Below are positions 19,466 to 55,239 of a stretch of 64,000 nucleotides of DNA, piece after piece. The number at the start of each line of letters is the position of its first letter. Position 1 is the stretch's first letter. This DNA is from a bacterium. Lineage in GTDB: Bacteria; UBA8248. The translations under genes and the position numbers were made by a program. The notes below the pieces were generated by a model. The model saw only the letters and a list, made by a program, of their open reading frames with translations, was not told where the DNA came from and made no database searches. The stretch covers positions 4,320,001-4,384,000 of the forward strand of contig OZ242260.1 in the NCBI GenBank assembly GCA_965207065.1. The letters are read 5' to 3'.

Positions 19466-19814
19466 CGGGGTCCTCGTGTACGGGTCTAAAGCATACTTTC
19501 TCCGAAATCGAAAACCATGTCAAGCAATAACCACAACATTTTGTGTCTTTAAGTACATGATTACGCCATATAATGGGATTTTCACTCACTACGATGTTTA
19601 TTAAAATTGTGTGTAATTCGTGTGCATCATGTGGATTGCATGTGATGAACATTTATGTCATATTCGAATTCCCCAAGGTAGTACACTCGCCCTCTTACAA
19701 TACCTGCACTACCAAACACCCGAGTAGTCTCCAGCGCGCTACATCGCCGCCCGGCAACTACGGTTCTGCTCCCCACGAGGGGCGGGTTCTCCGCTGTGAA
19801 TTTGCGACACGGGA

Positions 19815-22784
19815 GTGAACCGGGAAACCGGTCCCAAAGAATTGAGAAAAGCCAAATACCGAACGGTGATGGTGAGAGTGACGAGCGGAGCGGCACCACG
19901 TCTCCGCCTCGTAAGCGTCCGTTCGAATCGGGGAAGACGCATTCGTGCGTGCGTCGCCTTCTTCCTATCATTCCTCCTCGTCGCCTACGGGTTCTATGGC
20001 ACGAACTCCCTGGCGGACCATCATGAAAATCGCGAATTCTGGGACGGAAACCCGGCGAATGGAACAGTGCAGGTGTCGCTCGATGGAGTGAATGCCAGTT
20101 CGTCTATCTCGCTGACTATCGGCCCGGGAGAGACTAAAACCTACTACATCAGGCTATCTAAACAGCCACTTACGACCGACGACTGGTTCGTATTTATCAG
20201 GGTGCGCGCAAACGGCGTATCGCTCAGTAATAATTACTATCCGACGGAAGCCCCAAACAGAAAAGCGGCAAAGATCATCTGGACACCGTCTCTCTACCGG
20301 ACGTTCAACAAGGAGAGCGGCAAGGACCCGGGTAACCCGACTCGATGGAAGGACGTTGTAATTCAGGCGAATGAGAATCTTTCAGAGTCTGTCACCTTAC
20401 ACATCACGCACGAGGTGTGGGAAGATGATAAATTTTGCCCGATACACGAAGTGGGCAGGGTGGCAGTGAACGCCAACCTCAACTCCGGCGGCAACAACAA
20501 TCCCAACAACATCAATCCCGAGACCACAAACACTGACACCACCACAAACACTGACACCACCACAAACACTGACAACAATAATCCCGATAACAATAACCCC
20601 GGCACCAACAACAACCCCATCACCGACAACCCGGGTGTCAACAACCCCGGAACCAATAATGAAGGCAATGGCGGTGGCGGTGGAAGTGGTGGCGGCGGCG
20701 GTGTGGTTCCCAGAAATCCCGCTCAGCAGAACCCGCCGACACCGGTCAGCGCTAAGGTGGACGGGAACAAGCTGGTCCTCACTTTCAACGAGCTTCTTGA
20801 CAGGGGTTCCGTGCCGGCGCCCGGAGATTTCTCGGTGAGCGCGCATGACGTCGAATCTCTCAGCTTGAGCGGCTCGCGCGTGACGTTCAAACTGGAAACC
20901 CCTGCCATGCCAGGCGAGGAAGTGACGCTCTCCTACACGCCCGGGAAAAATCCGATCAAAAGCATAACCGGGCTCGTGGCCCCGTCTTTCACGAATCTGC
21001 CGGTCGAGAACATCGGGAAAGCGCCGGTGCTGGTGGACGCGAGTGTGCGCGGCAATCAGATAACTTTGACTTACGACGAACCACTGGATGAGACTTCCGT
21101 GCCGACGACGGGCTCTTACACGGTGATGGTTGCCGGTGCGAATCGGCCGATTTCCAAAGTGAGGGTCAAAGGCAAGAAGGTATTTCTGACCCTGGAATCG
21201 GCGGTGGAACCCGGCGAGGAAGTAACGCTCAACTACACTCCCGGCAGCCCTCGCATCGTGGACTTGACCGCGATTCCCGCAGGACCCATCAATAATTTAC
21301 AGATAAACAACTCCGCAGAAACGCCTGAGGTTAGTCTCGAGGGGACGAACGACTGGCTTACGCGCTTCGGGCGCACGGTGGCGAGTCAGGCGGTGGAGAT
21401 GATCGAGAACCGGCTGAAAGCCCCCTCCAAGAGGCAGGAGTCAAGTGTAACGCTCGCCGGACAGGACGTGGATTTCTTTGGCGATGATTCTCCGCTTCCG
21501 CTCTCACAGGACGACCCGGAATTCGCTTCCGCTTCCCGCCTCGCAAGCCGCACCCTGGGCTTCGGCGGTCTTTCCGGAAACGACCCCGCGGCGGAGCACC
21601 GCGAGATATCCATGAGCGATCTTCTGCTTGCGAGTTCGTTCCATCTCACCTCGGCGCAGAATACGGAAACCGGCGGGGGAACGTTGTGGACGACCTGGGG
21701 CCGGGGATCGCGGACGAGCTTCTTTGGAGATGAGGACAGTTCCACCTTCAATGGCGATGTGACGACAGGCACGATCGGGGCCGATTTCGAATGGGGCCGC
21801 ACCATGGTGGGCGTCGCGCTCTCTCACACCCTGGGCGAAGGGTACTTCTCGATCGACGGGAGGCGCAACGACGTGGAAGCCCGCCTCACGGGCGTTTATC
21901 CCTACTTGCGCTACACGGTGAGCGAGCGCCTCACAGTCTGGGGCATGTTCGGCTTCGGGAACGGTGAGTACGCGCAGACCGAACAAGGCGTCGGCGAGGA
22001 GATCGAGACCGACATCTCCATGCGGATGGGGGCGTTCGGTTTTCGCAGTTTCCTCTTCCCGCCGGCGCATCCGAGAGGCTACGACCTAGCCGTGAAGGGC
22101 GACGTGATGGTGGTCGAGATAGAGGCGGATGAGGTGCGCGACAAACTGCTCCCGGTGGATACGAACACGAACCGCTTCCGGCTGCTTCTGGAGGGTTCGC
22201 GCCAATACAAACTCGGGCGTGGCGCATCGCTCACGCCCTCGCTGGAGATGGGCGTACGCTACGATAAGGGCGACGCGGAAGAAGGAGGCGGCATCGAGGT
22301 GGGCGGCGGTTTCCGATACTTCGACCCTTCGCTGGACATGGTGATAGACGTAAATGCGCGCGGTCTGCTGCTGCACGAGGAGAGCAGATTCAGCGAAAAA
22401 GGCGTTTCGGGTTCGGTGCAACTTACCTGGGGCACAAAGAAAAAAGGCCTCTCCGTGCGGGTGGGCTCCTCATGGGGAGACGCCGCGAGCGGGGCGGAGC
22501 GTCTCTGGTCGCAGGCCTCCACGGCGAGTCTGTCCTCGAGTGCACACGGTGAAGGCGCACGTATGGAAGCCGAAGTGGGCTACGGGTTGGACGCGCCCGG
22601 CGGCGGCACCTTCAAGCCCTACGCCGGCCTTGCGCTCGCTGCCAGAGGAAGCGAGTCATATCGCCTGGGCGGGCGTCTACAATTCGACGACCGCGTGAGC
22701 CTGAGGCTCGAGGGGGACCGCCGCGAGCGCGTAGGCGGCAAATCCTCTCACGGCCTCGCCCTGCTGGGCTCTATTCGCTGGTAA
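19815..22784 (+). CDS. Autotransporter-like outer-membrane protein with an Asn/Thr/Gly low-complexity linker and two SwmB-like repeats
   Basis: Hydrophobic signal region. Two repeats of the form V.GN.L.LT(F/Y).E.LD..SVP...V.L.YTPG. C-terminal beta-barrel-like region from WLTRFGR (21354) ending in an aromatic residue (IRW). Exact start uncertain. Confidence 0.8.
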   Translation: MNRETGPKELRKAKYRTVMVRVTSGAAPRLRLVSVRSNRGRRIRACVAFFLSFLLVAYGFYGTNSLADHHENREFWDGNPANGTVQVSLDGVNASSSISLTIGPGETKTYYIRLSKQPLTTDDWFVFIRVRANGVSLSNNYYPTEAPNRKAAKIIWTPSLYRTFNKESGKDPGNPTRWKDVVIQANENLSESVTLHITHEVWEDDKFCPIHEVGRVAVNANLNSGGNNNPNNINPETTNTDTTTNTDTTTNTDNNNPDNNNPGTNNNPITDNPGVNNPGTNNEGNGGGGGSGGGGGVVPRNPAQQNPPTPVSAKVDGNKLVLTFNELLDRGSVPAPGDFSVSAHDVESLSLSGSRVTFKLETPAMPGEEVTLSYTPGKNPIKSITGLVAPSFTNLPVENIGKAPVLVDASVRGNQITLTYDEPLDETSVPTTGSYTVMVAGANRPISKVRVKGKKVFLTLESAVEPGEEVTLNYTPGSPRIVDLTAIPAGPINNLQINNSAETPEVSLEGTNDWLTRFGRTVASQAVEMIENRLKAPSKRQESSVTLAGQDVDFFGDDSPLPLSQDDPEFASASRLASRTLGFGGLSGNDPAAEHREISMSDLLLASSFHLTSAQNTETGGGTLWTTWGRGSRTSFFGDEDSSTFNGDVTTGTIGADFEWGRTMVGVALSHTLGEGYFSIDGRRNDVEARLTGVYPYLRYTVSERLTVWGMFGFGNGEYAQTEQGVGEEIETDISMRMGAFGFRSFLFPPAHPRGYDLAVKGDVMVVEIEADEVRDKLLPVDTNTNRFRLLLEGSRQYKLGRGASLTPSLEMGVRYDKGDAEEGGGIEVGGGFRYFDPSLDMVIDVNARGLLLHEESRFSEKGVSGSVQLTWGTKKKGLSVRVGSSWGDAASGAERLWSQASTASLSSSAHGEGARMEAEVGYGLDAPGGGTFKPYAGLALAARGSESYRLGGRLQFDDRVSLRLEGDRRERVGGKSSHGLALLGSIRW
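20523..20573 (+). repeat. 18-bp coding tandem repeat (about 2.8 copies, TTNTDT)
   Basis: ACCACAAACACTGACACC at 20523 and 20541, partial copy at 20559. Confidence 0.9.
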
Positions 22785-37974: not shown

Positions 37975-38063
37975 CGTCATTCCGCCGAAAGCCGGAATGA
38001 CAATGCCTTTGCTCGGTCGATAAACAAGAATATAGCGGACAGGTCCCTGTGCCTGTCCTCTAC
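37975..38063. repeat. REP-like palindromes (CGTC type and GTAG type)
   Basis: CGTCATTCCG-CCGAAAGC-CGGAATGAC at 37975-38001 and GGACAGG-TCCCTGTG-CCTGTCC-TCTAC at 38037-38063. Confidence 0.65.
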
Positions 38064-38169
38064 GGACCCCTCTTCCCGGTTGGCCCCATTCGCCGATTCA
38101 TGAATTTCGGACTTTTCAACAATCCCCTCCTCACGCTTCCCTTCCTCAAAGGCGCGCCGTGGCGAGGTT

Positions 38170-38206
38170 CTTTACGGAATCTTTACGATCTTTACACAAT
38201 CTTTAC
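38170..38206 (+). promoter_or_regulatory. Four phased CTTTAC direct repeats upstream of the SRCR autotransporter
   Basis: CTTTAC at 38170, 38181, 38190 and 38201 (periods 11, 9, 11 bp). Confidence 0.55.
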
Positions 38207-38362
38207 ATTCACTCGCAGCTTCCGCTGATACCATTTTCTTGCCCATTCGGGCCTCGCCGGACGTTCCTGGACGCGAAGGCGAGCCTGCCGCCGGTCTCGA
38301 AATTCCAAACCTGCCGCCTCCTTCCACATCCGCCGCCGCAACAACAGGAAGGGGAACAGACC

Positions 38363-41300
38363 ATGAAAACAGAATGTGGCGACACATCCGACGACGAACC
38401 TGGCGACCAAACCCGGAACAACACCACTTACCAAACACCACACCATCTGCGCATCACCCGGCGCGGCGGCCGTCTCAAGACGGCGCTGCTCGCGTTGCTC
38501 ACCATTTTCTTCTTCATGTCACCCGCCACGCCCGCCACGGCGGAGAAACAAGTCTGGTCCGGGACTCTGACCGCCAAGGAACTCCCCGGCGGCATCCTGG
38601 GCTGCAGCAACGACGTGCTGGCGGGCAGCAGGTGCTCCGAAAGCGCCGTTCTCACGGAGGACGAATTCACCGAAGGCGACGCCACCTACGCCGTTCATGC
38701 GGTCTTCGTCCGCAGCAACGGAAGACTCGAATTTTCCGTCCGGCCCATTCTTCCGGACAACCTGCGCTCGCTCGTCCTGTACGTCGGCGAGAAGACTTAC
38801 GACTTCGACAGCGCGGACATCGCCAACCATGGGTCGGGAACAAGCAGGTGGGCCTGGGACGGCTCCGCCCTCTCCTGGTCCGCGGGCGAAACCATTTCGC
38901 TCCGGCTGACGGACCCCACCTCTGCGTCGAGCGACGCGACCCTGAACACGCTGGGGATTAGCACAGGTTCTCTTAACGAGACGTTCGAGTCGACGACCAC
39001 GAGCTACACCGCCTCGGTGGAGAGCGGCGTCTCGCGAATCACGGTGACGCCGGCGGCGACCGACTCAAGCGCCACCATCTCCTGGCTCGATTCGAACGGC
39101 AGTCCGCTCGCCGACGCGGACGGGAGCACCGAGGGGTTTCAGGTCGATCTCTCGACTGGCGAAAAAGTCGTCAAGATCAAGGTGACCGCCGAGGATACCA
39201 CCACGACGCAGACCTATACGCTCACGATCGTGCGCCAGTCGGAACAAGGCGCAACGCCGACGGTCTCTATCGAGGCGGTGCACGCCAAGGCGGCGCCCAG
39301 GATCGCGCACCCCGAGTTCCGCGTGACGCGCTCTGCGTCTTCCGCCTCCCCCCTCACGGTCAACCTCTCGATAACCCAGGCGGCGAGTTATCTCTCGAAC
39401 ACTTCGCCGAGCGTCACCATTCCGGCGAACGAGACCTCGGCGACGGTGAAGCTCAGAAGCACTTACAGCGGCTCGACGAGCGGGGACATCACGGCGAGTA
39501 TCGCCGCGGGGACGGGCTACGAGGCGGCCGCCGCTCCCGACGACTCGGCGAACGTGGCGATGGTGGCGGCGGACCCGCTCCTCATCGTCAGCTGGGCGCA
39601 GAACGACTACAAGGTGAGAGAGGGCGAGAGCCTGGACGTCGCTATAAAGGCCACGACCGGCGCGAACGTGCCGCAGCCGAGGGAAACCCTAATTTATTCG
39701 GTGAGCGCCCGGGCGGATACAGCGGGAAGCCCCGACGACTATGCGGCGATTTCAGAAATACTGCGCGTCGAACCGGGCGACTATTCGGCGGACGGTAACA
39801 CCTTCTCGGCGACGAAGACGGTGACCGTGCAGACTGTTGCCGACGCCGAAGACGAGGGTGACGAGCAGTTTGGCGTTGTACTCGAAATATTGCCCGGTTC
39901 CCTGATTTCCCCGACCTGCCCCTGCCGCGCATCCGTCATCATCACAGAAGAAGATATCTCCGACGCGACCCTGAGCGCGCTTGCGATAAGCCCCGGTTCG
40001 CTCAACGAGGCGTTCGCGCCCGAGACAACGAGCTACACCGCCTCGGTGGAGAGCGGCGTCGCGCGGGTTACGGTGACGCCGACGACGAGCGACCCGGACG
40101 CGAGCATGGCGTTTTTCGCGTCGGACAATACGGCGCTTACCGACGCGGATACGAGCAGCCCGAACACCTTCGAGGTCGACCTTGCCACGGGCGAGAACGT
40201 CGTCAAGATCAAGGTGACCGCCGAGGATACCACCACGACGCAAACCTATACCCTGCGGGTGACCCGCATCGACGGTGGAATGCTGCGACTGGTGGACGGA
40301 AATACGCCCCATGAGGGCCGCCTCGAGTTATTCCACGGTGGCCAGTGGGGAACGATCTGCGACGACTATTGGACAGATAGCGACGCAGATGTTGCGTGCC
40401 GGCAACTCGGCTTCCCGGAGGGCTCGGTAGGCAACGGCGGTCGTTTCCTCCGGGCGCATTTCGGCGAGGGCGCCGGGCCGATCCATCTGGACGACTTGCT
40501 GTGCCGGGGCAACGAGACAAGCCTGATCGACTGTCCACGCGCGAACAACAATGCGGTGGGCGTCCACAACTGCCGCCACAGCGAGGACGTCGGGGTGCGG
40601 TGCTCGGTCGGCGGGCCGAGAATCTCAGGCGCGCCTTCCTTGAGCGCGCCTGATGCGAACGGGCGCTGGGGGTCGGGCGAGACGCTCGAAGTCACGGTGA
40701 CCTTCAGCATGGCAGTGGAGGTCGACACGACTCGCGGCGTACCGGGCGTCGGGGTACGGCTCGGAGATTCTACAGAGCGCCTCGCCACCTACGACCGGGG
40801 CGGCGGTACGATGGAGCTCGTGTTCGCCTATGCGCTTCGCCCGGATGACGGCGCGCATACGTCCGTGCACGTGAGCGGCGACAGCCTCGATCTCCGTGGC
40901 GGACAGATCCGAAGCGTGGCGTCCGGACGCGACGCGCTGCTCGACCACACAGGCGCGAGCCGCGCAGGAGTGGCGGGCGCTTCGCCCGCCCTCACCGCGG
41001 AGCTCAGGAACCTGCCGGATTCGCACAAGGGACGGGGGAACACGTTCAAATTCGAACTCCACTTCAGCGCCGAGATCCAGATGAACGCCGAGGCGGTGCG
41101 TGAACACCTGCAGCTGAGGAGAGCCCGTGTTTCCGAGGCGCAGAAGCTCTCGCCGCCGAGCAACACGGGCTGGGAAATAACGGTGTCACCCGATTCGTTC
41201 GACGACGTCGTCATCACGCTTCCCGCGACCGCCGACTGCACATCCCCGAACGCGGTTTGCACCCCTGACGGACAGAAACTCGAATCCGGCGTTTCGGCGT

Positions 41301-43087
41301 TGGTGCCGGGAGTTCCGGCGGTCTCGGTGTCCGATACGCAGGTGCAGGAAGGGCCGGGGGCCACACTCGACTTCCTGGTGACCGCCAGCCGGGCGCCTGA
41401 CCGGTTGGTGGCGGTGCGCTATCGCACGGTCGACGGGACGGCGCGGGCGGGGAGCGACTACACGGCGAGTTCGGGACACGTTTTCTTCCGTCCCGGGGTG
41501 ACGACGCGTACGGTGTCGATCCCGGTGCTCGACGACTCGCACGACGAAGGCAGCGAGACGATGCGCCTCGAGCTGTCTCAGGGGTCACATGCAGGCAGCC
41601 ATCGCTTGCGGATCGACGATGGCGAGGCGACGGGGACAATCACGAACACCGACCCGATGCCGAAGGCGTGGCTCGCGCGCTTCGGGCGCGAGGCGGCGGA
41701 GCACGTGACCGACGCGATTGCCGAGCGGCTGCGCGGCGCGCGCACGGGCGTTGTGCTGGGCGGGCAGAGCCTGGCGTTGGGCCGGGACCCTCTCCTCCCG
41801 GCGGACCCGAACGCCCGCCTCGCCTTGGGCGATTACGGAATCGGTAGAGATGGCGCAGGTAATGCTTTCGGCAGCCCAGGCGGCGTTTCGGGTGAGGACG
41901 CTGAAGCTAAGTGGCGCGAAATCGAGATGAGCGAGATGTTGCTCGCTAGTTCGTTCCACATGGCGTCCGCCGAGAAAATGGAGTCAGGACCACGCTGGTC
42001 GGTCTGGGGCCGGGGTGCGCGTTCGAACTTCCAGGGCGCAGAGGACAACCTCACGCTCGACGGCGAGGTGACGACGGCGACGCTGGGCGTGGACTATGAG
42101 CGCGACCGGTGGCTCGTCGGCGTGGCGCTTGCGCGAAGCGCGGGCGATGGTTCGTTCCGCACGAGCGGGGCGTGCACGACCGGCTGCGCGGGCGAGGTGG
42201 AGAGCACACTCATGGGCGTCTACCCCTACGCCCGCTACAGGGTGAGCGAGCGGCTCTCGCTCTGGGGCGCGCTCGGACAGGGGCAAGGCGATCTGACGCT
42301 CTCGCCAGAGGGCGCGCGGCACATCGAGACCGAGGTCGAGATGCGCATGGCGGCGGCGGGAGCGCGCGGCGTGCTCCTGCCCGCCTCCGTGACGGGCGGG
42401 TACGAACTCGCCCTGCGCGCGGACTTGCTCGTGACGCGGACGACCTCGGACGCGGCGGCTGGCCTCGCCGAGGCCGAAGCGGAGACAAGCCGCATCCGCG
42501 TGCTGCTCGAAGGCTCGCGCGCATTCAAGCTGGGAAGCGGTGTGCTCACGCCCTCGCTGGAAGTCGGCCTTCGCTACGACGGGGGCGACGCGGAGACGGG
42601 AAGCGGCCTCGAAGTCGGCGGCTCGATGCGCTATTCGTCAGGAAGCCTCTCGGTGGAGGTGAGCGCGAGCGGCCTCCTCGCCCACGCCGATAACGACTAT
42701 GAGGAATGGGGCGTGAGCGGCTCGGTGCTCTACGCGCCGGGCGCCGACGGGCGCGGGCTGTCCGTGCGCGTGGGCTCCGGCTGGGGAGCGGATTCGGGGA
42801 GCGCGGAGAACCTCTGGGCACAGCGATACGGCGGCATACCCACTGGCGTGTTCGACCCCGAAACGCGGCTCGACGCCGAGGTGGGCTACGGTTTCGACGC
42901 CAGGCGCGGCCTGCTCACGCCCTACGCGGGCGTGGCGATGTCGGATAGCGGAGAGATCTGGCGCGCGGGCGCGCGCTGGCGGATTGCGCACGCCTTCGAC
43001 GTGAGTTTGGAGGCCTCGCTCAAGGAGTCGGAATACGACGAAAAACCCGAAAGCGGCGTGCTGCTGCGCTGTTCGAGGCGGTGGTGA
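38363..43087 (+). CDS. Large autotransporter-like adhesin: two cadherin-like beta-sandwiches, Calx-beta-like domains, an SRCR domain and a C-terminal beta-barrel
   Basis: ATG at 38363 after GGAAGGGG, long signal peptide ending ATA. Repeats SDATL..L.IS.GSLNE.F...TTSYTASV...VKIKVTAED. SRCR at 40280-40606, Calx-beta motif TVDGTARAGSDY, barrel from WLARFGR (41669) ending RRW. Confidence 0.88.
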   Translation: MKTECGDTSDDEPGDQTRNNTTYQTPHHLRITRRGGRLKTALLALLTIFFFMSPATPATAEKQVWSGTLTAKELPGGILGCSNDVLAGSRCSESAVLTEDEFTEGDATYAVHAVFVRSNGRLEFSVRPILPDNLRSLVLYVGEKTYDFDSADIANHGSGTSRWAWDGSALSWSAGETISLRLTDPTSASSDATLNTLGISTGSLNETFESTTTSYTASVESGVSRITVTPAATDSSATISWLDSNGSPLADADGSTEGFQVDLSTGEKVVKIKVTAEDTTTTQTYTLTIVRQSEQGATPTVSIEAVHAKAAPRIAHPEFRVTRSASSASPLTVNLSITQAASYLSNTSPSVTIPANETSATVKLRSTYSGSTSGDITASIAAGTGYEAAAAPDDSANVAMVAADPLLIVSWAQNDYKVREGESLDVAIKATTGANVPQPRETLIYSVSARADTAGSPDDYAAISEILRVEPGDYSADGNTFSATKTVTVQTVADAEDEGDEQFGVVLEILPGSLISPTCPCRASVIITEEDISDATLSALAISPGSLNEAFAPETTSYTASVESGVARVTVTPTTSDPDASMAFFASDNTALTDADTSSPNTFEVDLATGENVVKIKVTAEDTTTTQTYTLRVTRIDGGMLRLVDGNTPHEGRLELFHGGQWGTICDDYWTDSDADVACRQLGFPEGSVGNGGRFLRAHFGEGAGPIHLDDLLCRGNETSLIDCPRANNNAVGVHNCRHSEDVGVRCSVGGPRISGAPSLSAPDANGRWGSGETLEVTVTFSMAVEVDTTRGVPGVGVRLGDSTERLATYDRGGGTMELVFAYALRPDDGAHTSVHVSGDSLDLRGGQIRSVASGRDALLDHTGASRAGVAGASPALTAELRNLPDSHKGRGNTFKFELHFSAEIQMNAEAVREHLQLRRARVSEAQKLSPPSNTGWEITVSPDSFDDVVITLPATADCTSPNAVCTPDGQKLESGVSALVPGVPAVSVSDTQVQEGPGATLDFLVTASRAPDRLVAVRYRTVDGTARAGSDYTASSGHVFFRPGVTTRTVSIPVLDDSHDEGSETMRLELSQGSHAGSHRLRIDDGEATGTITNTDPMPKAWLARFGREAAEHVTDAIAERLRGARTGVVLGGQSLALGRDPLLPADPNARLALGDYGIGRDGAGNAFGSPGGVSGEDAEAKWREIEMSEMLLASSFHMASAEKMESGPRWSVWGRGARSNFQGAEDNLTLDGEVTTATLGVDYERDRWLVGVALARSAGDGSFRTSGACTTGCAGEVESTLMGVYPYARYRVSERLSLWGALGQGQGDLTLSPEGARHIETEVEMRMAAAGARGVLLPASVTGGYELALRADLLVTRTTSDAAAGLAEAEAETSRIRVLLEGSRAFKLGSGVLTPSLEVGLRYDGGDAETGSGLEVGGSMRYSSGSLSVEVSASGLLAHADNDYEEWGVSGSVLYAPGADGRGLSVRVGSGWGADSGSAENLWAQRYGGIPTGVFDPETRLDAEVGYGFDARRGLLTPYAGVAMSDSGEIWRAGARWRIAHAFDVSLEASLKESEYDEKPESGVLLRCSRRW

Positions 43088-43113
43088 TCCATCCTTCGAG
43101 GGGGGGGCCGCAA

Positions 43114-43273
43114 GGACAGGTCGCGACCTGTCCCTACAAGAAATGCGGTTGGCCTGCCGCATCAGAGAGGACGCATCGGCCCTCCCCTGGAAAAATCTTC
43201 CGTCGTTCCCGAGATGCGGGGACAGGCCCCGGCCTCGAAGAAGCACGGACTGACTCCCCCTCAAGGGGGGAGT
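43114..43273. repeat. REP-like palindromes
   Basis: GGACAGGTCGCGACCTGTCC-CTAC (perfect palindrome with GTAG on the minus strand) at 43114-43137 and ACTCCCCC-TCAAG-GGGGGAGT at 43253-43273. Confidence 0.7.
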
Positions 43274-44002
43274 GAACTTCAAAAGCATCCGCGCAACTCA
43301 AAATCGCTTCCAGAGGGTTTTTCAGCAGCCCCTCCTCGCTCGCGTTTGACACGCATTTCCCCGCATTTGCCGTATCCCTGCATTTTCGGAGATTCGGTAT
43401 CGTGCGCGCGGCGCGGGGGAAAGCGAACCCTCCTTCATCAGTCGGGTTCGACCTCTCGCGTTGGTCGGGCAAACCCTCGCTCGGGTTCGACCCCAAGGGA
43501 AAAGAGGCTTACCCATGGAATCAGGCATTCGGGAGAAATTGAAGACGGTGATAACTGCATTCTTCGCCGGAGCGGCCCGTCCATCTTCAGAAGAACACGG
43601 GCAGCCTCGTTCGAACTCCCCCGCTTCGGGGATTTTCGATACCCTCTACAAAAGCGCACACCTGCTCTCCTTACTCCGGTTCGATAATCTCGAAGAGAGG
43701 AACTGCACGGATGGATTCGAGGAAGGCGCAGAAATGAAAATAATCATATTTCCCGTAAATATAGATAAATTCACGGGGTTTTTCGATAAATTCCTGAAAG
43801 GGATGCGCCCTGTAAATGATTGTATTCGAAAGAGTTACCATACAAATCTGAGCGATGAACATTCAGATACGGCGATAAAAATAGTTTCCGGGTTCCCCCG
43901 CATTTGCCCGCAACCGCCCGCATTTCCTCTTGCCCCACATTACGCCGCAAACCCTCCCTCCTCGGTCGGGTTTGACCCCCGCATTTGCCCGCAATTGCGC
44001 GC

Positions 44003-44788
44003 TTAAGCGTCGCCGCCTTCTATCTCTCCTTTGGGCGCGTCGTCCACGCTCGCCTCGATGAAGGGTCTGATCAGGTCGAGCGGCAAGGGGAAGACGATGG
44101 TGGAGTTGTTCTCGGTGGCGACTTCGGAAAGCGTCTGCAGGAAGCGAAGCTGGAGCGCGCCCGGGGCCGTGGCGATGGTGGTGGCGGCCTGGGCCAGCCG
44201 CTCGCTCGCCTGGTATTCGCCCTCCGCGTGAATGACCTTGGCGCGACGCTCACGCTCGGCCTCGGCCTGGCGGGCGATGGCGCGCTGCATCTCGTGGGGA
44301 AGGTCCACGTGCTTGAGCTCCACGTTGGTGACCTTGATGCCCCACGGGTCGGTGGCGTGATCGAGGAGTTCCTGGAGCTGGGAGTTGATCTTCTCGCGCT
44401 CGGAGAGCAGATCGTCCAAATCCATCTGGCCGAGCACGCTCCGGAGCGTCGTCTGGCTCAACTGGCCCGTGGCGTAGAGGAAATCCTCCACCTCGATGAT
44501 AGCGCGCTCGGGATTCAGTACGCGGAAGTAGACCACGGCGTTCACCTTCACCGACACGTTGTCCTTCGTGACGATATCCTGCGGCGGCACGTCCATCGTC
44601 ACCAGCCGCAAGCCTACGCGGGTCATGCGGTCGATCACCGGAAGCACGATGATGAGGCCGGGCCCTTTCGTGGAAAGGAAGCGCCCCAGCCGGAAGATGA
44701 CGCCGCGCTCGTATTCGTTCAGCACCCGGATGGCGCTCGCGAAGAACAACAAGATGATGATGGCGGCAATTATCAAGCTCCAATTCAT
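44003..44788 (-). CDS. Slipin / SPFH (band 7, stomatin-like) protein
   Basis: [59 protein letters not shown]. Confidence 0.94.
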
Positions 44789-46117
44789 TTATCCACCCTC
44801 CTTCTCGACGCGGAGCCTGAGGCCCTCCACCGAGACTACGCGGACTTTGTCCCCGATTTCCAGGGGTTCTCGAGAATCCGCCATCCATATCTCGCCGTGC
44901 ACCCGAACCTGGGCCGGCGATCCTACCCCGGGCGAAGCACTCACAATCCCGGACTGATCGAGCATTCCCTCCGAACCCGAAACCGGCCGCACCCGCTGGG
45001 CGCGGAAACCCATTCCCACGAGCCAGACGAAGAACATGGCCGTGGCGGCGACCGCGGGCAGAATCACTTTCAGGCTGATTTGCAGGTAGGGGTCCGGAGA
45101 ATCGATGAGCATGACCGAACCCAGCGTCATGGCGATGATGCCGCCGATGGTCAGACCCCCGTAGCTGACCACCTTTATCTCCAGGAGAAACATGATGAGG
45201 GCGAGCCCCATCAGGAGAAGCCCCACATAGTTCACCGGCAAGACTTTAAGGGCATAGAGCGCCAGAAGGAGGCTGATGGCCCCCACCACGCCGGGAAGAA
45301 TCGAGCCGGGATTCGAGAGCTCGAAAAACAGCCCATACATGCCCAGCAGCATCAGGATATAGGCGATGTTGGGATCGCTCAAAAGGGTGAGCACTTTCTG
45401 GCGCCAGCTGCGCTCGAGCACGATTTGCGCAGCGCCCCTGGTCGAGAGGGTGACGGTATCGCCGCTGGCGAGCTTTATCTTTTTCCCGTGAACCGCCAGA
45501 AGAAGGGAGCGCACGTCCGCCGCCACCAGGTCGATGACCTTTTGCTTCAGGGCCTCGGCCTCATCCACGGATATCGCCTCGCGGACCGCGCTCTCCGCCC
45601 ATTCGATGTTGCGACCGGTGCGGGAGGCCACCGCGCGCGCGAAAGCGGCCACGTCGTTCATCGCCTTTTTTCGCATATCGCCCTGAATCTGCTTTCCACC
45701 ACCCGAGACAGGAGAAGCGGCGCCGATGTTCGTGCCCGGCGCCATGGCGGCGATGTGGGCCGACATGGTGATGAACGTTCCCGCGGAGGCGGCCCGCGCC
45801 CCTCCCGGAGCGACGTATACAGCCACAGGGACATTCGCGCCGAAAATTTCCTTCACGATATCGCGCGTGCTGGTAACCAGACCGCCAGGGGTATCGAGAC
45901 GAATGACGAGAAGCTGCGCCTGCCTTCGTGTAGCTTCTTCGATGCCGAATGCGATGTATTCCGAAGTGCCGGGCGATATGGCGTCCGCCACGTCCAGCAC
46001 AATGACGGGAGGCGTTTTCTGGGCGGCAGTGGCATGGTAGATGGTCAGTATCGCACCGACAGCCACCAGAGCCAACAGAACCGCCAAATGGATTTTTTTG
46101 TAAAGCTTCCTCCGCAT
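44789..46117 (-). CDS. nfeD: NfeD family membrane-bound serine protease (ClpP class)
   Basis: LDTPGGL, ARAASAG, TNIGAASPV, membrane domain, C-terminal OB fold (VHGEIW). Canonical partner of slipin. Confidence 0.92.
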   Translation of the reverse strand: MRRKLYKKIHLAVLLALVAVGAILTIYHATAAQKTPPVIVLDVADAISPGTSEYIAFGIEEATRRQAQLLVIRLDTPGGLVTSTRDIVKEIFGANVPVAVYVAPGGARAASAGTFITMSAHIAAMAPGTNIGAASPVSGGGKQIQGDMRKKAMNDVAAFARAVASRTGRNIEWAESAVREAISVDEAEALKQKVIDLVAADVRSLLLAVHGKKIKLASGDTVTLSTRGAAQIVLERSWRQKVLTLLSDPNIAYILMLLGMYGLFFELSNPGSILPGVVGAISLLLALYALKVLPVNYVGLLLMGLALIMFLLEIKVVSYGGLTIGGIIAMTLGSVMLIDSPDPYLQISLKVILPAVAATAMFFVWLVGMGFRAQRVRPVSGSEGMLDQSGIVSASPGVGSPAQVRVHGEIWMADSREPLEIGDKVRVVSVEGLRLRVEKEGG

Positions 46118-46198
46118 TCCATACCTCAAAAGCAACTAGATCAATTAAGCTATCTTAACACAAAGGAGAATCTTTTATCGCCCGCCCGATCGAGTCCA

Positions 46199-47542
46199 TT
46201 ATTGTTGCACATCCAGTTCGAGCAACACCTCATCCAAGATGCCCACGGCCGTATCGACCTGCGCTTTATTGATAATCAGAGGAGGCAAAAACGCCAGGAC
46301 GTTCCCGTGGTGTCCTCCCGGATAGATGAGAAGACCTTTTTTCAAGGACATGTCACTCGCCTTCTTGGCGACGCTCAAGGGTTCGCGCGTCGCCCGGTCG
46401 GAAACCAACTCGGCCGCTATCATCAGCCCGCGCCCTCGAACCTCCCCGACGATGGAATGGCGCTCCGACAGCTCCTCCAGCCTTCTCAGGAAATACGAGC
46501 CCATCTCCAGGGAGCGTTCGGAGAGATTCTCCTCCTCATACACCTCGATGGAAGCCAGGCCGGCGGCGCATGCCATGACGTTTCCGGCATAGGTGCTGCT
46601 TTCGGTTCCGGGATTCGAAGCATCCGCGATTTCTTTTTTCGCGACGCAGGCGGCAAGAGGCAATCCGCCTGAAATCGATTTTCCCATCACGATCAGATCG
46701 GGCTCGATATCTTCATACTGGTAGGCGAACATCTTTCCCGTACGGCAAAACCCGCTCATCACTTCATCGATGATGAGCAGCACCCCGTACCGATCACAGA
46801 TATCGCGGAGCGCCTTCAAAAACCCGATGGGGGCCGGAATCATGCCGCCGTTTCCCTGAACCGGCTCGATGATGACGGCGGCCACATCGCCCCAGCCGCT
46901 CACCGGATTCTCAAGAAATTCATTGATGTAACGAATCGTCCCCTCTGTGCATTTCTCCGGACCATCACCAAAGGGGTTCCGATATGGGTATGGATATGGG
47001 ACGTGATGAATGCCCGGAACCAGGGTTCCCAGCCCCTCTCTTTGGTTCTTTCTTCCCATCAGGGCCACGGCCCCTAATGTCCTGCCGTGGAACGCGCCTG
47101 TAAATGCGACGATTTCATTGCGCCCTGTCGCCCGGCGGGCCATCTTGAGGGCGATCTCGGCCGCTTCGCTGCCCGAAGTACCGAGAATCATGCTCTTGGG
47201 AGTTGCGCCCGAATGCAGGGAGAGAACTTTTTCTAGAAATTCATTTCTTGTCCTCGAACCCAGCGACATGGCCTGATGGATCTGCTCCGCTTGTCTTTGC
47301 ATCGCCGAAACAACTTTGGGATGACAATGACCCGCGTTCAAGGATCCAAAACCGGAGACAAAATCCAGAAACAAATTGCCGTCAACGTCTTCGATCACCG
47401 CCCCTTGCGCACGCTCGACAACGACGGTTTCGGGGCTCATCCCGAAGCTGAGGGCAGCGCGGCTCTCCGCCTTCCTGAGACGTTCAAGTTCCTTACGGGT
47501 TTCGGGGCCGGGATGGGGAACCACAATTTTCGGCGCTTCCAA
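46199..47542 (-). CDS. Class III PLP aminotransferase (4-aminobutyrate aminotransferase-like)
   Basis: DVDGNLFLDF, SGSEA, FHGRT, EPVQGNGG, DEVMSGFCRTG, GKSISGG. TTG start at 47542 after GAGGAGG. Confidence 0.9.
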   Translation of the reverse strand: MEAPKIVVPHPGPETRKELERLRKAESRAALSFGMSPETVVVERAQGAVIEDVDGNLFLDFVSGFGSLNAGHCHPKVVSAMQRQAEQIHQAMSLGSRTRNEFLEKVLSLHSGATPKSMILGTSGSEAAEIALKMARRATGRNEIVAFTGAFHGRTLGAVALMGRKNQREGLGTLVPGIHHVPYPYPYRNPFGDGPEKCTEGTIRYINEFLENPVSGWGDVAAVIIEPVQGNGGMIPAPIGFLKALRDICDRYGVLLIIDEVMSGFCRTGKMFAYQYEDIEPDLIVMGKSISGGLPLAACVAKKEIADASNPGTESSTYAGNVMACAAGLASIEVYEEENLSERSLEMGSYFLRRLEELSERHSIVGEVRGRGLMIAAELVSDRATREPLSVAKKASDMSLKKGLLIYPGGHHGNVLAFLPPLIINKAQVDTAVGILDEVLLELDVQQ

Positions 47543-51653: not shown

Positions 51654-52286
51654 TCAACTTTTGCCGCCCGTTGCGCGCTTAGGATTCTGCGTCGTAAGCC
51701 AGCGGGTGCGCACCCACATTTTCTTTCCCGCCCATCGGCCCGATTTGACCTCCACACGAGTAAAACCGCGACGGTCGCCGGAAATGACGGTTACACGCGT
51801 TCCTGGTTCCAGCCTGTAGGGATAGCGGGAGCCGCGCGGCACGTCATAGCCACCCGCATAACTCAGTGACAACCCCCGATACGTGCGGCGGATGTATCTC
51901 TCGCCCGCAAATCTTTCGCTTTGACGGACAGGTTTCAAGGCGGATTCCTTTACGCGCGCCGCCTTTGGTGAAACCATCGTCGCCTTGGGTTTCGCCTTTA
52001 CTTCATTCACCGCTTTCTCAAAATTCGATACCGCGTCACGAAGCTGCAATTTGAACTCGTTCAATGACTTTCCATGGTTCGCCAGGATTTGCGTGTGCGC
52101 GAGAAGCTGGCCGCGAATCGACTCGACTTTCTTTTTGCTTTCCTCTTTTTCCTCCTGGTAGTCGGCTTGCATCACCACCAAGCTGCATCCGGAGAGAGCG
52201 GCAATCAGGACGCTAAAGCACACCATGCGCCATGCAAAATACCTTATGCCCGGTGATTTCATTTTCCGCTCACGCATCCAGCTCAT
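51654..52286 (-). CDS. Hypothetical lipoprotein with a coiled coil and an SH3-like C-terminal domain
   Basis: Lipobox LSGC, charged helical middle region, LEPGTRVTVI...TRVEV..G.W...MWV tail. Start uncertain; the ATG at 52286 overlaps the upstream stop. Confidence 0.65.
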   Translation of the reverse strand: MSWMRERKMKSPGIRYFAWRMVCFSVLIAALSGCSLVVMQADYQEEKEESKKKVESIRGQLLAHTQILANHGKSLNEFKLQLRDAVSNFEKAVNEVKAKPKATMVSPKAARVKESALKPVRQSERFAGERYIRRTYRGLSLSYAGGYDVPRGSRYPYRLEPGTRVTVISGDRRGFTRVEVKSGRWAGKKMWVRTRWLTTQNPKRATGGKS

Positions 52287-53116
52287 ACCGGATACCATCC
52301 TTCAATAGGCGGCATTACGACCAACTCGCTGCTCAACGCGACGACTCCATCATATTCTCCGGAAATTGATTCAGCCAATTCTTTTTCTTCATCGCTGTTG
52401 ACGCGCCCGTGCAAGAACAGTTCTCCCGGTCCGAGACACTCTACGACAATACCGCTCGCATCGATTCGCTCATCCGTCATGATTGTAGCTTTGATCTTTT
52501 GCGCAAAAGCCAGATTCTTGAGCTTTTGAGAATCCGATGGCCTTACTTGCGAAAATTGCTCGCTTTTCAGAATGTTCACCAGCAAACGAACCGACGTATC
52601 TTCGTCGAACAGTCCGGTATTCAATATGATGTCGAAGTGGCTCGGCTCTCCCCACCTGACATCGAAAAAATGCCGCGTATAAGCCATTCTTTCATCGTCA
52701 TTGTGGCGTATGAACTGCTCCGCCATAGAAGGAGTTATCCCCTCATTCTTCACCAGCGTCCGTTGGCGATAATCTCTTGGAGCCACGATACGCGCCCGGA
52801 ATATGCCCTCGATTCCCTCCAGGAGGATATGGGAGCCGCGGCCCAATATGACGAAATCATTTTTCAAGGCCGATTCATAAACGATGGCGCGCATGATATC
52901 GAGATACACCAGTTGCCTGTCACGGAAAAAGCGGTCTATCAAACCGGGCTTCCTCTCATCCACCTGCTCGAGTTCGGCTCGAACATAACCATATGATTGC
53001 GCGGCATCGGCAAATCCGTCGTTGTCCAACAAGGCCCATCCCAATTTTTGGGCGATTTTCTTCGCAATAACATCACCACCGCTTCCAAGCTCTCTCGAGA
53101 TTGTCAGAATTCCCAT
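52283..53116 (-). CDS. Cytidylate-kinase-like protein with a C-terminal BON domain
   Basis: TISRELGSGG, VILGRG, FDIILNT, then a BON-like LHGRVNS...GV segment. Confidence 0.82.
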   Translation of the reverse strand: MGILTISRELGSGGDVIAKKIAQKLGWALLDNDGFADAAQSYGYVRAELEQVDERKPGLIDRFFRDRQLVYLDIMRAIVYESALKNDFVILGRGSHILLEGIEGIFRARIVAPRDYRQRTLVKNEGITPSMAEQFIRHNDDERMAYTRHFFDVRWGEPSHFDIILNTGLFDEDTSVRLLVNILKSEQFSQVRPSDSQKLKNLAFAQKIKATIMTDERIDASGIVVECLGPGELFLHGRVNSDEEKELAESISGEYDGVVALSSELVVMPPIEGWYPV

Positions 53117-53300
53117 TTTCAGCCCTCCAGACTAAGGGTGGCGACTACTAGAGGCGGGATGGTCACGCATCACCATCCATTCATATCATTTGCTTACAAT
53201 TATTACATACAACACTTTTATTCATGGCAGGACAAGTGTTCAGTTGTTCAAGCCATGAAGATGCGGCGAATATACACATTCATCCGATCGCTTTCGGGCA

Positions 53301-55043
53301 TCATTTGCGGCTCGCCCTCTTGAATTTTTCCAATTGCAGACGAAAATAGCGACTTCCGGGATCTAATTCAATCGCCCTTTGAATGAGCGGAAGCGCCTTC
53401 ACCGATTCTCCGTTGCGATAATATAACTCCGCCAGCGTATCGAGATACGCCGGCGTATCAGGTTGGAGTTCTAGCGAGCGTTTCGAAAGTTTGATCGCAT
53501 GAACCAAACTTTCCTTATCCTTTCTGTGAAACCACGCCAACCGATTCAACGCTGGCGCTGAATTCTTATCTATCTCAAGCACCTGCATGAACACCTTCTT
53601 CGATTCTTCAGGCTTCCCGGCTTCCCAAAGGAAAACACCTAGTTCCACCAAAACGCGAGACGAACGGGGGTTCTTCTCCAACAAATCCACAAGTATTTTA
53701 TGAGCGAGTTCTTTCCGTTCCCTCGATTTATGAAGATTTGCGATGCGGATTTTCATCTCGATGTCGTTCAAGTCCAGTTGGCCCGCCTTTTCATATAGCG
53801 CAATCGCATCCTTGTCTCGACCCTTGGATTCCAAAAGGGCACCCAAACGTATATATCCATCCAGCCAATCGGGCGATAAAGAAACAACTTTCTTATAAGC
53901 GCGTATTGCTTCGTTCCTACGGTTCATTTGAACCAGGGCGGCGCCCAGCAAGAAATGGAACCTCGCATTTTCCGGTGTTTTTTCGATAGCGCCCCTGAGC
54001 AGGTTCACTGCCCTCGTCGGCTCTTTTCCGGATACAAAGCGCTCTGCATTGATTAAAACCTGGGTTGGATCCAATGCCTCTTGCGCAGGTACGACCGAAT
54101 CGGGCCGTACCGTTCTGACACGGGATTCGACGATTTGGAGCCGCCTTTTCAGGACGATGTCTTCGGGTTCACGCAGAAAAGCTTCTCTGTATATTTCCAG
54201 TGCTTTTGAGAGTTGCCCACTGCGAACATACAAATCACCAAGCAGGATCATCCCTTCGATGTGCCCCGGAGTACGTTGGAGCAGAGATTTTATTTCACGT
54301 ATGGACTCAGCAGTATGATTTTGCTGCGCTAGTATTTTCGCCAAGCGGTACCGGGCCAAATTCTGGCGGCTGCTCTTGAGCGCCAAAGCTTTTCTCAGAC
54401 TGTCTGCAGCTTTTTCGAATTCCCCTTTGCTTTGGTGCCGAGTCGCCTCTGCAATGTATCTTCTTTGTTGTTCTTCTAACTGAAGCTTCGGATTGTTCGG
54501 TTCGCTGGAACCCAGCCAGTCACTAACTCTCGCTTCCCACATTGTGTCGAGGCGCTGCCAGATGTAACGAAAATAATCTGGAGATTCGCGAGAAATCGCC
54601 GTAGTGGCAACACCAGCGGCCAGAAACAACACCAATCCAGCCGCAAGTTGCAGGCGCCTTTTCGATATCCACGGTTTGGGCACAGGGGTCGCAGCGACTT
54701 CGGGCATCATCAATCTACCCTCAAAGCTTGCTTCTGGATCAATATATACTTTACGGGCCGTCACATTCCCCTCATGAAAGCACCCGGCTTTGAATTCAAC
54801 ACGATTCGCCACGAAAATAGAACCTTTGGTATGGCCTTGATTCACCAATTCTTTCGTATGTATCTCACCCGCGGCTTTACCCGTCTCCGTAATCTCAAGA
54901 TGACCATCACCATGGAGTTCGCCTTTGAACTCGCCTGCCACGAGAACTTTGCCCGTGAAAAGCAGCGAGCCTTCCAGGCACACATTCGCTCCGATGAAAG
55001 AGAGATTCGACTGTGGCCTGCCATAGATGCGTTGGTTTTGCAC
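53301..55043 (-). CDS. Bactofilin-transmembrane-TPR fusion protein
   Basis: The N-terminal ~110 aa read as a bactofilin beta-helix (IGANVCLEG...GEFKGEL...GEI...ASFEGRL). One TM helix follows, then many TPRs ending ALNRLAW...YLDTLA. Confidence 0.82.
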   Translation of the reverse strand: MQNQRIYGRPQSNLSFIGANVCLEGSLLFTGKVLVAGEFKGELHGDGHLEITETGKAAGEIHTKELVNQGHTKGSIFVANRVEFKAGCFHEGNVTARKVYIDPEASFEGRLMMPEVAATPVPKPWISKRRLQLAAGLVLFLAAGVATTAISRESPDYFRYIWQRLDTMWEARVSDWLGSSEPNNPKLQLEEQQRRYIAEATRHQSKGEFEKAADSLRKALALKSSRQNLARYRLAKILAQQNHTAESIREIKSLLQRTPGHIEGMILLGDLYVRSGQLSKALEIYREAFLREPEDIVLKRRLQIVESRVRTVRPDSVVPAQEALDPTQVLINAERFVSGKEPTRAVNLLRGAIEKTPENARFHFLLGAALVQMNRRNEAIRAYKKVVSLSPDWLDGYIRLGALLESKGRDKDAIALYEKAGQLDLNDIEMKIRIANLHKSRERKELAHKILVDLLEKNPRSSRVLVELGVFLWEAGKPEESKKVFMQVLEIDKNSAPALNRLAWFHRKDKESLVHAIKLSKRSLELQPDTPAYLDTLAELYYRNGESVKALPLIQRAIELDPGSRYFRLQLEKFKRASRK

Positions 55044-55239
55044 GAGTTCTTCTCATAAAAAGTGTGATTGAAAAGTTCTCAATCAATCCACACGTATCAA
55101 TATATTACCAAAATGTTGAAAACTTGCGCCAATTCATATTTGACGCCTACCCATGATTTTGTCTGTGTGAAATATGACCAGGAGCGAGCAGCAAACGAGC
55201 GAAACTTATGACGTAGGGATGATCAGACGAATCGAAACT

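Follow-up and report, generated by a model that had tools for sequence, protein, structure and literature searches.

A group-A scavenger receptor cysteine-rich domain in a bacterial surface protein, a probable calcium-dependent adhesin module of sponge symbionts

[quoted passage not shown] It is nearly certain that the segment 40280-40606 is a genuine group-A SRCR domain. The locus is bacterial, and the domain is probably part of a eukaryote-like, calcium-dependent adhesin module of sponge symbionts that has spread between bacteria by gene transfer. We would class this SRCR module as a new kind of domain among the eukaryote-like adhesion proteins already known from sponge symbionts, carried here on an anchor of autotransporter type.

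40280..40606, forward strand: SRCR domain, group-A type, with six cysteines and intact cation-site residues (Pfam, phmmer, alignment, AlphaFold2 and Foldseek)

The domain comprises 109 residues, identical to those quoted in the sequence-only reading, and is stop-free and in frame inside the open reading frame (ORF) 38159-43087 on the forward strand. It covers the Pfam SRCR profile PF00530 end to end (positions 1-100 of 100), with a score of 93.1 bits when the whole protein is searched and of 100.2 bits for the domain alone against a cut-off of 26.1, which confirms the complete six-cysteine domain proposed by the sequence-only reading. A phmmer search of PDB sequences returned 26 distinct SRCR chains at E <= 1e-5. 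The top single-domain matches are neurotrypsin (6h8m, 120.7 bits), LOXL2 (5ze3, 107.4) and MSR1 (6j02, 102.4), and CD6, SCARA5, Mac-2BP, DMBT1 and MARCO are among the further best single-domain matches; identity to the solved structures is 43-55%. Cysteines fill all six conserved SRCR columns, and in alignments to the group-B protein CD163 the two extra group-B cysteine columns are occupied by H and F. Following the cysteine definition of the two groups as given in PMC10855680, the earlier assignment to group A is therefore correct. None of 51 bacterial domains has a cysteine at the group-B columns, versus 12 of 37 chordate rows. The AlphaFold2 model of the domain, based on 33 bacterial sequences, has a mean predicted local distance difference test score (pLDDT) of 92.6 and a predicted template modelling (TM) score of 0.86. 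In Foldseek the predicted fold superimposes on SCARA1 (7dpx/6j02), SCARA5 (7c00/7bzz) and M2BP (1by2) with TM scores of 0.88-0.92 and root-mean-square deviations of 1.3-1.5 A. By prediction only, the domain thus fits the compact SRCR fold, a curved beta-sheet cradling one alpha-helix.

Family, six cysteines, predicted fold and the acidic residues of the cation site are all shared with the animal group-A SRCRs of SCARA1/MSR1, SCARA5, MARCO, Mac-2 binding protein, LOXL2 and neurotrypsin. Unlike these, the window SRCR is encoded in a single uninterrupted bacterial frame with bacterial codon use, sits among cadherin-like and Ig-like/Calx-beta modules, and carries two loop insertions common to its bacterial clade. 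Animal SRCRs are borne on a collagenous stalk or a transmembrane helix, whereas the window SRCR would be anchored by a predicted outer-membrane barrel.

An assembly chimera or host contamination, in which a sponge SRCR exon was joined to bacterial DNA, was considered as a rival explanation: SRCRs are overwhelmingly animal, and all named matches among the 120 listed by a protein search with the window SRCR (described below) are from Metazoa. Contamination of this kind also seems real in other metagenome-assembled genomes (MAGs), namely G221 and G369, in which the SRCR matches lie in exon-sized frames of 114-128 amino acids (aa). The window genome, however, consists of one closed contig (4,476,866 bases) in which SRCR occurs once, and on this 4.48-Mb contig the domain lies within an uninterrupted 1642-aa frame. 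The stretch 39400-41600 was found whole or in part in 20 public runs from 10 studies, and four of the 20 runs are labelled "sponge metagenome". No RNA run is among those listed, which says nothing about expression in either direction. Bridging was checked in four runs from four independent studies, with the best-matching run left out as a possible source, and in all four the contigs cross the SRCR and both flanks. The contig of run X9 spans 38000-41684 with 65 differences and that of X4 spans 40031-41685 with 20; those of X15 and X18, both labelled "sponge metagenome", span 40031-43107 (102 differences) and 40031-43200 (164 differences) at about 95-97% identity to the window. Contig breaks at 39002-39028 and 40031-40057 fall at an internal cadherin-like repeat of the gene.

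The GC-rich codons noted earlier indeed match the rest of the gene: G+C at third codon positions (GC3) is 0.789 in the SRCR versus 0.822 +/- 0.043 in 109-codon windows taken across the gene, 18% of which have a lower value. The codon fit of the SRCR (0.192) lies inside the range of 16 background ORFs of the window (0.009-0.295). In the sister species G014 (locus L013) the region is collinear, with 82-95% DNA identity in the flanks and 86-92% in the gene; the ortholog is collinear with the window over 38113-43107, and the SRCR and its flanks are conserved at 89-93% protein identity. The neighbouring genes are of housekeeping type (MazG, RecD2, a DinB-type polymerase, SNase). The single contig, the bridging in four studies, the codon match and the collinearity of the sister species together exclude a chimera with host DNA, to which we assign a negligible probability. 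The presence of the gene in runs labelled "sponge metagenome" likewise removes the concern, raised with the initial proposal, that the domain might have no link to a host.

The architecture of the protein is as follows.

38346..38354, forward strand: ribosome-binding site AGGAAGGGG, 8 nt 5' of the ATG, inferred by sequence reading
38363..43087, forward strand: coding sequence of the SRCR surface protein; 1574 aa with this ATG as the likely start (the mechanical ORF starts at GTG 38159 and has 1642 aa)
38363..38542, forward strand: long leader with a basic stretch, a hydrophobic core and ATPATA/EKQ, identified by eye; putative Sec signal peptide with an extended N-region
38549..38932, forward strand: N-terminal passenger domain without a family match (nothing credible in Pfam at E <= 1)
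38933..39250, forward strand: cadherin-like beta-sandwich 1 (PF12733; Pfam 108.4 bits, 2 stretches)
39590..39952, forward strand: Calx-beta 1, a weak copy (24.6 bits for the segment alone, under the cut-off of 27)
39971..40267, forward strand: cadherin-like beta-sandwich 2 (PF12733; best Pfam stretch, residues 605-703 of the 1642-aa ORF)
40607..41323, forward strand: two probable Ig-like spacers (SWM_repeat/Big_5-like) of ~240 residues, no Pfam match
41324..41650, forward strand: Calx-beta 2 (PF03160; Pfam matches best over residues 1056-1164, at profile positions 11-118 of 119)
41636..41992, forward strand: junction motif and linker opening the C-terminal module, conserved across modules; linker modelled at pLDDT < 50
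41993..43084, forward strand: predicted C-terminal autotransporter-type outer-membrane beta-barrel ending in W (AlphaFold2 and Foldseek)

Over the whole protein, Calx-beta is matched in 2 stretches with 85 bits. The first cadherin-like unit and the copy at 39961-40254 form a direct repeat within the gene. At E <= 1 Pfam names nothing in the N-terminal domain, the spacers behind the SRCR or the linker, and NCBIfam gives only a partial sodium/calcium-exchanger (Calx) match. Stretches similar to the N-terminal domain (query residues about 83-388) occur in paralogs of the genomes G002, G013 and G022. A feature search of the ESM-Atlas relates the two spacers to SWM_repeat clusters (0.94, 199 of 256 features shared), which we take as a lead only. 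The passenger is acidic, with 136 D/E versus 73 K/R. In the junction motif, I2, N4, D6, P7, W12, R15, F16, G17 and R18 are invariant in all 12 modules that were aligned, which come from three phyla.

The barrel is predicted from a structural model. In the AlphaFold2 model of the C-terminus long antiparallel strands reach pLDDT 70-80 in the core. All of the top five Foldseek matches belong to autotransporter beta-domains, at E values of 2e-6 to 5e-6 and a target TM of 0.52-0.62, with BrkA (3qq2), EspP (2qom) and Hbp (3aeh) at the top and NalP (1uyn), EstA and AIDA-I further down. The window encodes a second protein with this module, which exceeds the Pfam Autotransporter cut-off (PF03797, 39.3 bits versus 26):

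19800..22781, forward strand: paralogous surface protein with SWM repeats and the same C-terminal module, without SRCR (44% identity to residues 1169-1642)

The combination of a signal-peptide-like leader with a C-terminal outer-membrane barrel makes surface display plausible, and the SRCR protein is likely displayed on the cell surface, as far as the models indicate, in support of the initial description as a bacterial surface protein. The putative leader, the long passenger and the predicted C-terminal barrel are arranged as in the type Va adhesins BrkA, EspP, Hbp, NalP and AIDA-I; the best fold matches of the barrel model are autotransporter beta-domains, the last residue is aromatic as in these adhesins, and a paralog passes PF03797. 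It differs from them in its passenger, which consists of beads of Ig-like, Calx-beta and SRCR modules instead of a beta-helix, in a presumably disulfide-rich domain, in a low-confidence barrel model of more than 12 strands, and in itself being without a PF03797 match.

Of the 23 genomes of the genus, 19 match the C-terminal module in open frames of about 800-3000 aa; the matches cover residues ~1160-1642 and in many cases begin near residue 940 or 1050. There are up to 24 places per genome, with 24 in G022, 20 in G014, 19 in G002, 15 in G013 and eight in the window genome (G000). A whole-protein search found a full-length ortholog within the genus in G014 only (81-93% identity). The occurrence of the module on many passengers throughout the genus indicates that the SRCR is one cassette among many on a common translocator. 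The G014 ortholog (L013 2851-8136) contains three cadherin-like units versus two in the window, so the unit number of the ~1030-nt internal repeat varies; just downstream of this ortholog, G014 has about 2.3 kb of extra DNA (L013 8160-10469).

According to the text of PMC7043408, SRCR8 of DMBT1 binds hydroxyapatite, heparin and a streptococcal protein via surface cations at two sites, site 2 formed by D1019/D1020/E1086 and site 3 by D1020/D1058/D1059/N1081; binding requires calcium and is abolished by D1019A or D1020A, and the site is common to MARCO, CD6 and CD163. The window SRCR (domain numbering) has D28, D29 and E102 at site 2 and D29, D71, D72 and N97 at site 3, and the spacings match those of DMBT1 (DD then +7 D; DD then a hydrophobic residue; N then +5 E). 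Of the 51 bacterial domains, 45 keep the complete site-2 triad (31/31, 8/11 and 6/9 across three bacterial groups), versus 111 of 119 animal domains. The conserved cation-site residues, together with the Calx-beta and cadherin-like modules, lead us to infer a calcium-dependent binding module.

In this sponge-associated bacterium with two membranes, a putative Sec leader would carry the protein to the periplasm, and the autotransporter-type barrel would insert in the outer membrane and anchor or export the acidic passenger, so as to expose the cadherin-like, Calx-beta and SRCR modules and the Ig-like spacers. The disulfides of the SRCR would need to be oxidised in the periplasm or outside the cell. 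Its acidic cation cluster would bind polyanionic or protein ligands in a calcium-dependent manner, and, placed on a calcium-binding stalk of Calx-beta and cadherin-like modules, the SRCR would most likely act as a calcium-dependent adhesin in calcium-rich seawater and sponge mesohyl. Polyanionic glycoconjugates, in the matrix of the sponge or on its cells, would be the likeliest targets, with other microbes less likely. Within the expanded, genus-wide family sharing the C-terminal module, the SRCR would be an exchangeable cassette. By analogy with the animal domains, calcium-dependent adhesion to host material is the function that we favour.

SRCR domains are rare in bacteria, in agreement with the initial expectation. 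PF00530 was counted in whole genomes, with the following frequencies.

Well-known control genomes: 0/14 with SRCR
Window phylum, 51 species-level genomes: 6/51, all in the window genus (6/23)
Window phylum outside the genus: 0/28
Other-domain relatives: 0/15
Even sample of the class of G066 (Gammaproteobacteria by record title): 3/400 other genomes
Even sample of the class of G070 (Alphaproteobacteria): 0/400
Even sample of the class of G067 (Dehalococcoidia): 1/400 over the cut-off, plus one weak match

The even class samples combined contain four SRCR-bearing genomes in 1200. Two of the three from the gammaproteobacterial sample are G221 and G369, whose SRCRs look like animal DNA binned into bacterial MAGs: in G221 (C4: 67-360, 4429-4722, 13137-13430 and 17499-17792) the exon-sized frames lie about 4.3-8.7 kb apart, and G369 has one such match (C279:745-1050). 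When 185,579 species genomes were scanned for patterns of peptides from the window domain, 29 loci were found, all in MAGs, with 49-89% identity. Their record titles name Alphaproteobacteria, Candidatus Entotheonella, Dehalococcoidia, Azotimanducaceae, Gammaproteobacteria, Pseudomonadales, Foliamicus, Bdellovibrionales, Caldilineaceae, Acidimicrobiales and Rhodospirillaceae. As many of the SRCR loci lie on Mb-scale contigs, mis-binning does not explain the spread; those of Caldilineaceae and Acidimicrobiales, with their short contigs, are less secure. The prefixes RHO, IRC and COS in MAG labels may stand for sponge genera named in PMC8163846. Entotheonella is well established as a symbiont of sponges, and sponge residence of the carriers is indicated by the MAGs titled Entotheonella among the relatives as well as by the four "sponge metagenome" runs. 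The eight SRCR proteins scanned have these architectures:

G014 ortholog: same architecture as the window protein
Entotheonella: SRCR, Calx-beta, same barrel
Alphaproteobacteria: Big_9 and cadherin-like arrays, SRCR, Calx-beta, same barrel
Dehalococcoidia: 15 Calx-beta and SRCR, or Calx-beta, SRCR and SWM repeats
Gammaproteobacteria: cadherin-like, cadherin, fn3, SRCR, LRR
Bdellovibrionales (L027:1852-7869): five SRCR, six cadherin and LRR in one 2006-aa frame

A second bdellovibrional locus (L029:3001-12300) has at least four SRCRs in a frame of 3100 aa or more that runs off the locus, and these two frames are the densest bacterial SRCR arrays in this analysis.

In a protein search with the window SRCR against 5.8 billion proteins, run in the mode for longer proteins, 648 of 684 candidates matched at E <= 1e-10. 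Among the 120 matches listed, every organism-named one is animal, with 42-56% identity, and 16 are metagenome-only. The animals are echinoderms, sponges, molluscs, cnidarians, placozoans and chordates. Sponge SRCRs are 42-53% identical and no closer than those of echinoderms or vertebrates, so among these matches sponge, echinoderm and vertebrate SRCRs are equally close (42-56%) and name no donor lineage. For the trees, 51 distinct full-length bacterial domains were kept from 65 matches of a profile built from the loci. To these were added 167 animal and metagenomic rows out of 942 domain matches in the 120 listed proteins, taking the best full-length domain per protein, or the best three for sponge, placozoan, cnidarian, hemichordate and metagenome-only proteins. 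This choice biases the animal rows toward the domains that resemble the bacterial profile most. FastTree was run on all 218 rows and IQ-TREE, under a mixture model, on 113 rows (the 51 bacterial and a fixed random set of 62 animal ones), a set that leaves out all 48 metagenome-only rows; the alignment has 103 columns.

FastTree places the window SRCR in an all-bacterial clade of 11 rows with support 97, which IQ-TREE also recovers with an SH-aLRT (Shimodaira-Hasegawa-like approximate likelihood ratio test) value of 97. The clade comprises the domains of the window genome (G000) and G014, Entotheonella, four Dehalococcoidia, one Alphaproteobacterium and three Foliamicus domains, and thereby spans four phylum-level groups. 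Most members lie on Mb-scale contigs, and they share loop insertions; we regard this cross-phylum clade as solid. A second FastTree clade of 31 rows (support 86) unites Gammaproteobacteria, Bdellovibrionales, Caldilineaceae, Acidimicrobiales and Rhodospirillaceae, and the other SRCR copies of the genus (G005, G021, G022, G018 and the extra G014 copies) are placed elsewhere in the FastTree. Within the 11-row clade cross-phylum identity reaches 62-68%, and the module of Calx-beta plus barrel is also common to the Entotheonella and alphaproteobacterial proteins, i.e. to three phyla. We interpret this combination as transfer of the gene, or of its 3' half, between co-resident bacteria; the sequences point to passage of the SRCR between unrelated sponge-associated phyla by horizontal transfer. 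As the tree is unrooted it gives no direction of transfer. The patchy distribution in bacteria against the ubiquity in animals favours an animal source, and an ultimate animal origin of the bacterial SRCR is the more economical guess. Of the assimilated eukaryote-like domain suggested in the sequence-only reading, a real group-A SRCR that is rare in bacteria thus stands, and a one-off capture from the host does not, given that the clade is all-bacterial.

Several observations weigh against the reading of a horizontally spread surface adhesin. The free trees scatter the bacterial SRCRs, with seven changes of the label "bacterial" in FastTree and six in IQ-TREE, and 103 columns resolve little of the deep order. 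The starred branches of the IQ-TREE tree force only one such change. A tree with all 51 bacterial domains constrained into one clade surpassed the free quick tree by 28.7 log-likelihood units, and its p-AU in the approximately unbiased (AU) test was 0.834. The several origins of bacterial SRCRs that the free trees suggest are accordingly unsupported by this test; a single origin is not rejected, and we claim neither polyphyly nor proven monophyly. The counts were made on genomes that carry no habitat labels. The mapping onto DMBT1 follows residue identities and spacings given in the text of PMC7043408 and not a printed alignment.

Other points concern the anchor. The SRCR protein itself stays under the PF03797 cut-off and reaches OMP_b-brl only below threshold (26.4 versus 28.7 bits), and NCBIfam has no match for the C-terminus. 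The overall confidence of the barrel model is low (mean pLDDT 53.3), no pore helix is resolved in the poorly modelled linker (pLDDT < 50), and the model draws more than 12 strands, the number in a classical type Va barrel. Folded, disulfide-bonded passengers are poor cargo for type V barrels, and as a rule of thumb type Va passengers have few cysteines or only closely spaced pairs. In the window protein the cysteines outside the SRCR are all close pairs, 2-10 residues apart (81/91, 519/521, 959/966 and 1271/1275). Those of the SRCR (666, 679, 714, 724, 737 and 747, numbered from the Met at 38363) break the rule, since their expected partners are about 70 residues apart. Given this poor passage of disulfide loops, either the SRCR crosses in a reduced state, or the barrel exceeds the classical 12 strands in width, or the assumed translocation of the passenger does not hold. 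The protein thereby raises the question of how a type-V-like system would handle a disulfide-rich passenger.

Alternatively, the SRCR may be directed at microbes and not at the host, binding other bacteria, phage, free lipopolysaccharide or lipoteichoic acid in co-aggregation or biofilm formation within the crowded mesohyl, or as a phage decoy. DMBT1, MARCO and SR-A bind microbial surfaces via the same cation site (as described in PMC7043408 and PMC4850255), and the text of PMC8163846 allows that adhesion domains of symbionts could equally serve attachment between bacteria. Nothing in our data separates microbe from host binding, but Calx-beta, cadherin, fn3 and LRR partners are usually read as host-matrix adhesins (PMC8163846, in its text), and we consider a microbial target unlikely. 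It is also conceivable, if rather improbable, that the passenger, displayed or shed, is an immune decoy or mimic of host SRCR receptors, which competes for ligands or marks the cell as "self" against phagocytosis by amoebocytes. The expanded SRCR repertoires of sponges are implicated in microbe recognition (PMC4850255, PMC10855680), an influence of symbiont ankyrin proteins on phagocytosis is reported (Nguyen et al. 2014, cited by PMC4850255), and an identity of 42-56% to the listed animal SRCRs would suit a mimic. There is, however, no sign of cleavage or release, the listed sponge SRCRs show no specific affinity to the window domain, and the bacterial SRCRs may form their own clade. An inert spacer, i.e. 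a rigid module that lengthens the stalk without a ligand of its own, would fit the position of the SRCR in mid-passenger between Ig-like and cadherin-like modules, away from the tip, and the high modularity of the passengers in this family. A pure spacer need not keep cation- and ligand-binding residues, which 45 of the 51 bacterial copies do, and the family also offers Ig-like modules that are cheaper and have no cysteines; we thus regard a mere spacer as highly improbable.

As to origin, the SRCR could be an old bacterial fold that animals inherited or acquired, with the bacterial copies being native. This would be compatible with the single clade that the AU test does not reject, with the fully ameliorated codon use and with the presence of SRCRs in at least six phylum-level groups. 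The extreme patchiness (4/1200 in the even samples, 0/28 in the phylum outside the genus and 6/23 within it) and cross-phylum identities of 49-68%, which are far too high for vertical descent, fit a recent spread and no ancient inheritance. With SRCRs also present throughout Metazoa, a native bacterial fold appears improbable, and transfer between bacteria of a eukaryote-like adhesin module remains the reading that we prefer.

Sponges house dense bacterial communities although bacteria are also their food, and the recognition and retention of symbionts are an open question. On the sponge side, SRCR proteins form one of the most expanded receptor families. An SRCR with a ligand site that is intact by sequence, on surface proteins of symbionts from several phyla, is therefore a concrete candidate molecule for contact with the host. 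Its partner domains elsewhere in bacteria (cadherin, fn3, LRR, Calx-beta) are the classic adhesion modules among the eukaryote-like proteins (ELPs) of sponge symbionts, and these same classes are described in the text of PMC8163846 as enriched and laterally transferred in sponge MAGs. In being a eukaryote-type domain that is rare elsewhere, the SRCR resembles the ELPs with ankyrin, LRR, TPR, WD40, cadherin and fibronectin III domains (PMC8163846, PMC4850255). As in these, the carriers are sponge-associated MAGs of many phyla, the partners are adhesion modules and lateral transfer is apparent. It differs in being absent from the ELP classes named in the text of the two papers; "SRCR" has no occurrence in the text of PMC8163846, whose supplementary Pfam tables lay outside this check. 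In the literature searched, which excluded most subscription journals and supplementary tables, SRCR appears only as a host or animal domain and no bacterial case is described, and the strings "prokaryot" and "contamina" do not occur in the text of PMC10855680. The present protein adds a domain class to the ELP repertoire that the papers searched do not mention.

The same two extracellular domain types, SRCR and Calx-beta, are found in the sponge aggregation system. The aggregation factor is rich in Calx-beta (MAFp4) and acts in a calcium-dependent setting (PMC11670116), and the putative aggregation receptor of Geodia combines SRCRs with short consensus repeats (SCRs; PMC4557014, citing Blumbach 1998). 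A wreath domain of the aggregation factor in the sponge-symbiotic Cycloclasticus, as reported in PMC11670116, is a precedent for transfer from sponge to symbiont. Unlike the sponge system, the window protein has no wreath or SCR domains, and among the matches listed its SRCR has no specific sequence affinity to sponge SRCRs. The shared domain types and the wreath precedent motivate the idea of mimicry and do not demonstrate it; that the window protein might interact with the aggregation factor is speculation by analogy. On a bolder view, symbionts of at least five phyla would share one bacterial SRCR lineage, displayed together with Calx-beta modules, by which they plug into the calcium-dependent self-adhesion and self-recognition of the host, and so would be kept as "tissue" rather than eaten. 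We think this unlikely. If it were true, some "host" SRCR counts in sponge transcriptomes and metagenomes may include bacterial genes. In any case, SRCR genes of a holobiont are not host genes by default, nor are SRCR matches in MAGs bacterial by default, as the two likely contaminated MAGs illustrate.

The surroundings of the SRCR gene contain several repeats, two of them belonging to one dispersed family of repetitive extragenic palindromic (REP)-like elements.

38037..38059, no strand assigned: REP-like hairpin, an imperfect GGACAGG...CCTGTCC palindrome upstream of the gene, by sequence reading
43114..43133, no strand assigned: REP-like hairpin GGACAGGTCGCGACCTGTCC, 27 nt past the stop codon, by sequence reading

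The hairpin pattern (GGACAGG, 4-12 nt, CCTGTCC) has 160 sites in the genome versus one for the reversed control, and the copy past the stop codon is possibly also a terminator. Copies on either side of the SRCR gene yield false "joints" in contig comparisons. The joints that skip the gene (38058 to about 43110-43115, with sides of 22-23 nt) were considered as an empty site or a cassette swap and rejected: they arise from the REP-like hairpin with its 160 genomic sites and are no evidence of excision. A second hairpin repeat, with arms around CATTCCG...CGGAATG, lies just upstream at about 37976-38001; it also occurs at loose contig ends in runs X9 and X18, and is probably another dispersed repeat. 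Between 38170 and 38206, about 160-190 nt upstream of the start codon, CTTTAC occurs four times at spacings of 11, 9 and 11 nt, and could be a regulator-binding array or a promoter element of the surface-protein gene. Downstream of the SRCR gene, an 895-aa ORF at 43985-46672 on the forward strand has no Pfam match and an odd pattern of G+C over its codon positions (0.77 at first positions, GC3 0.63), which may reflect a wrong frame or an unusual gene; its region is conserved in G014 with 92% DNA identity. The GC content of the window is 0.58-0.66 except for dips to about 0.49-0.50 at 12001-14000 and 52001-56000, and these low-GC stretches may be islands or foreign DNA.

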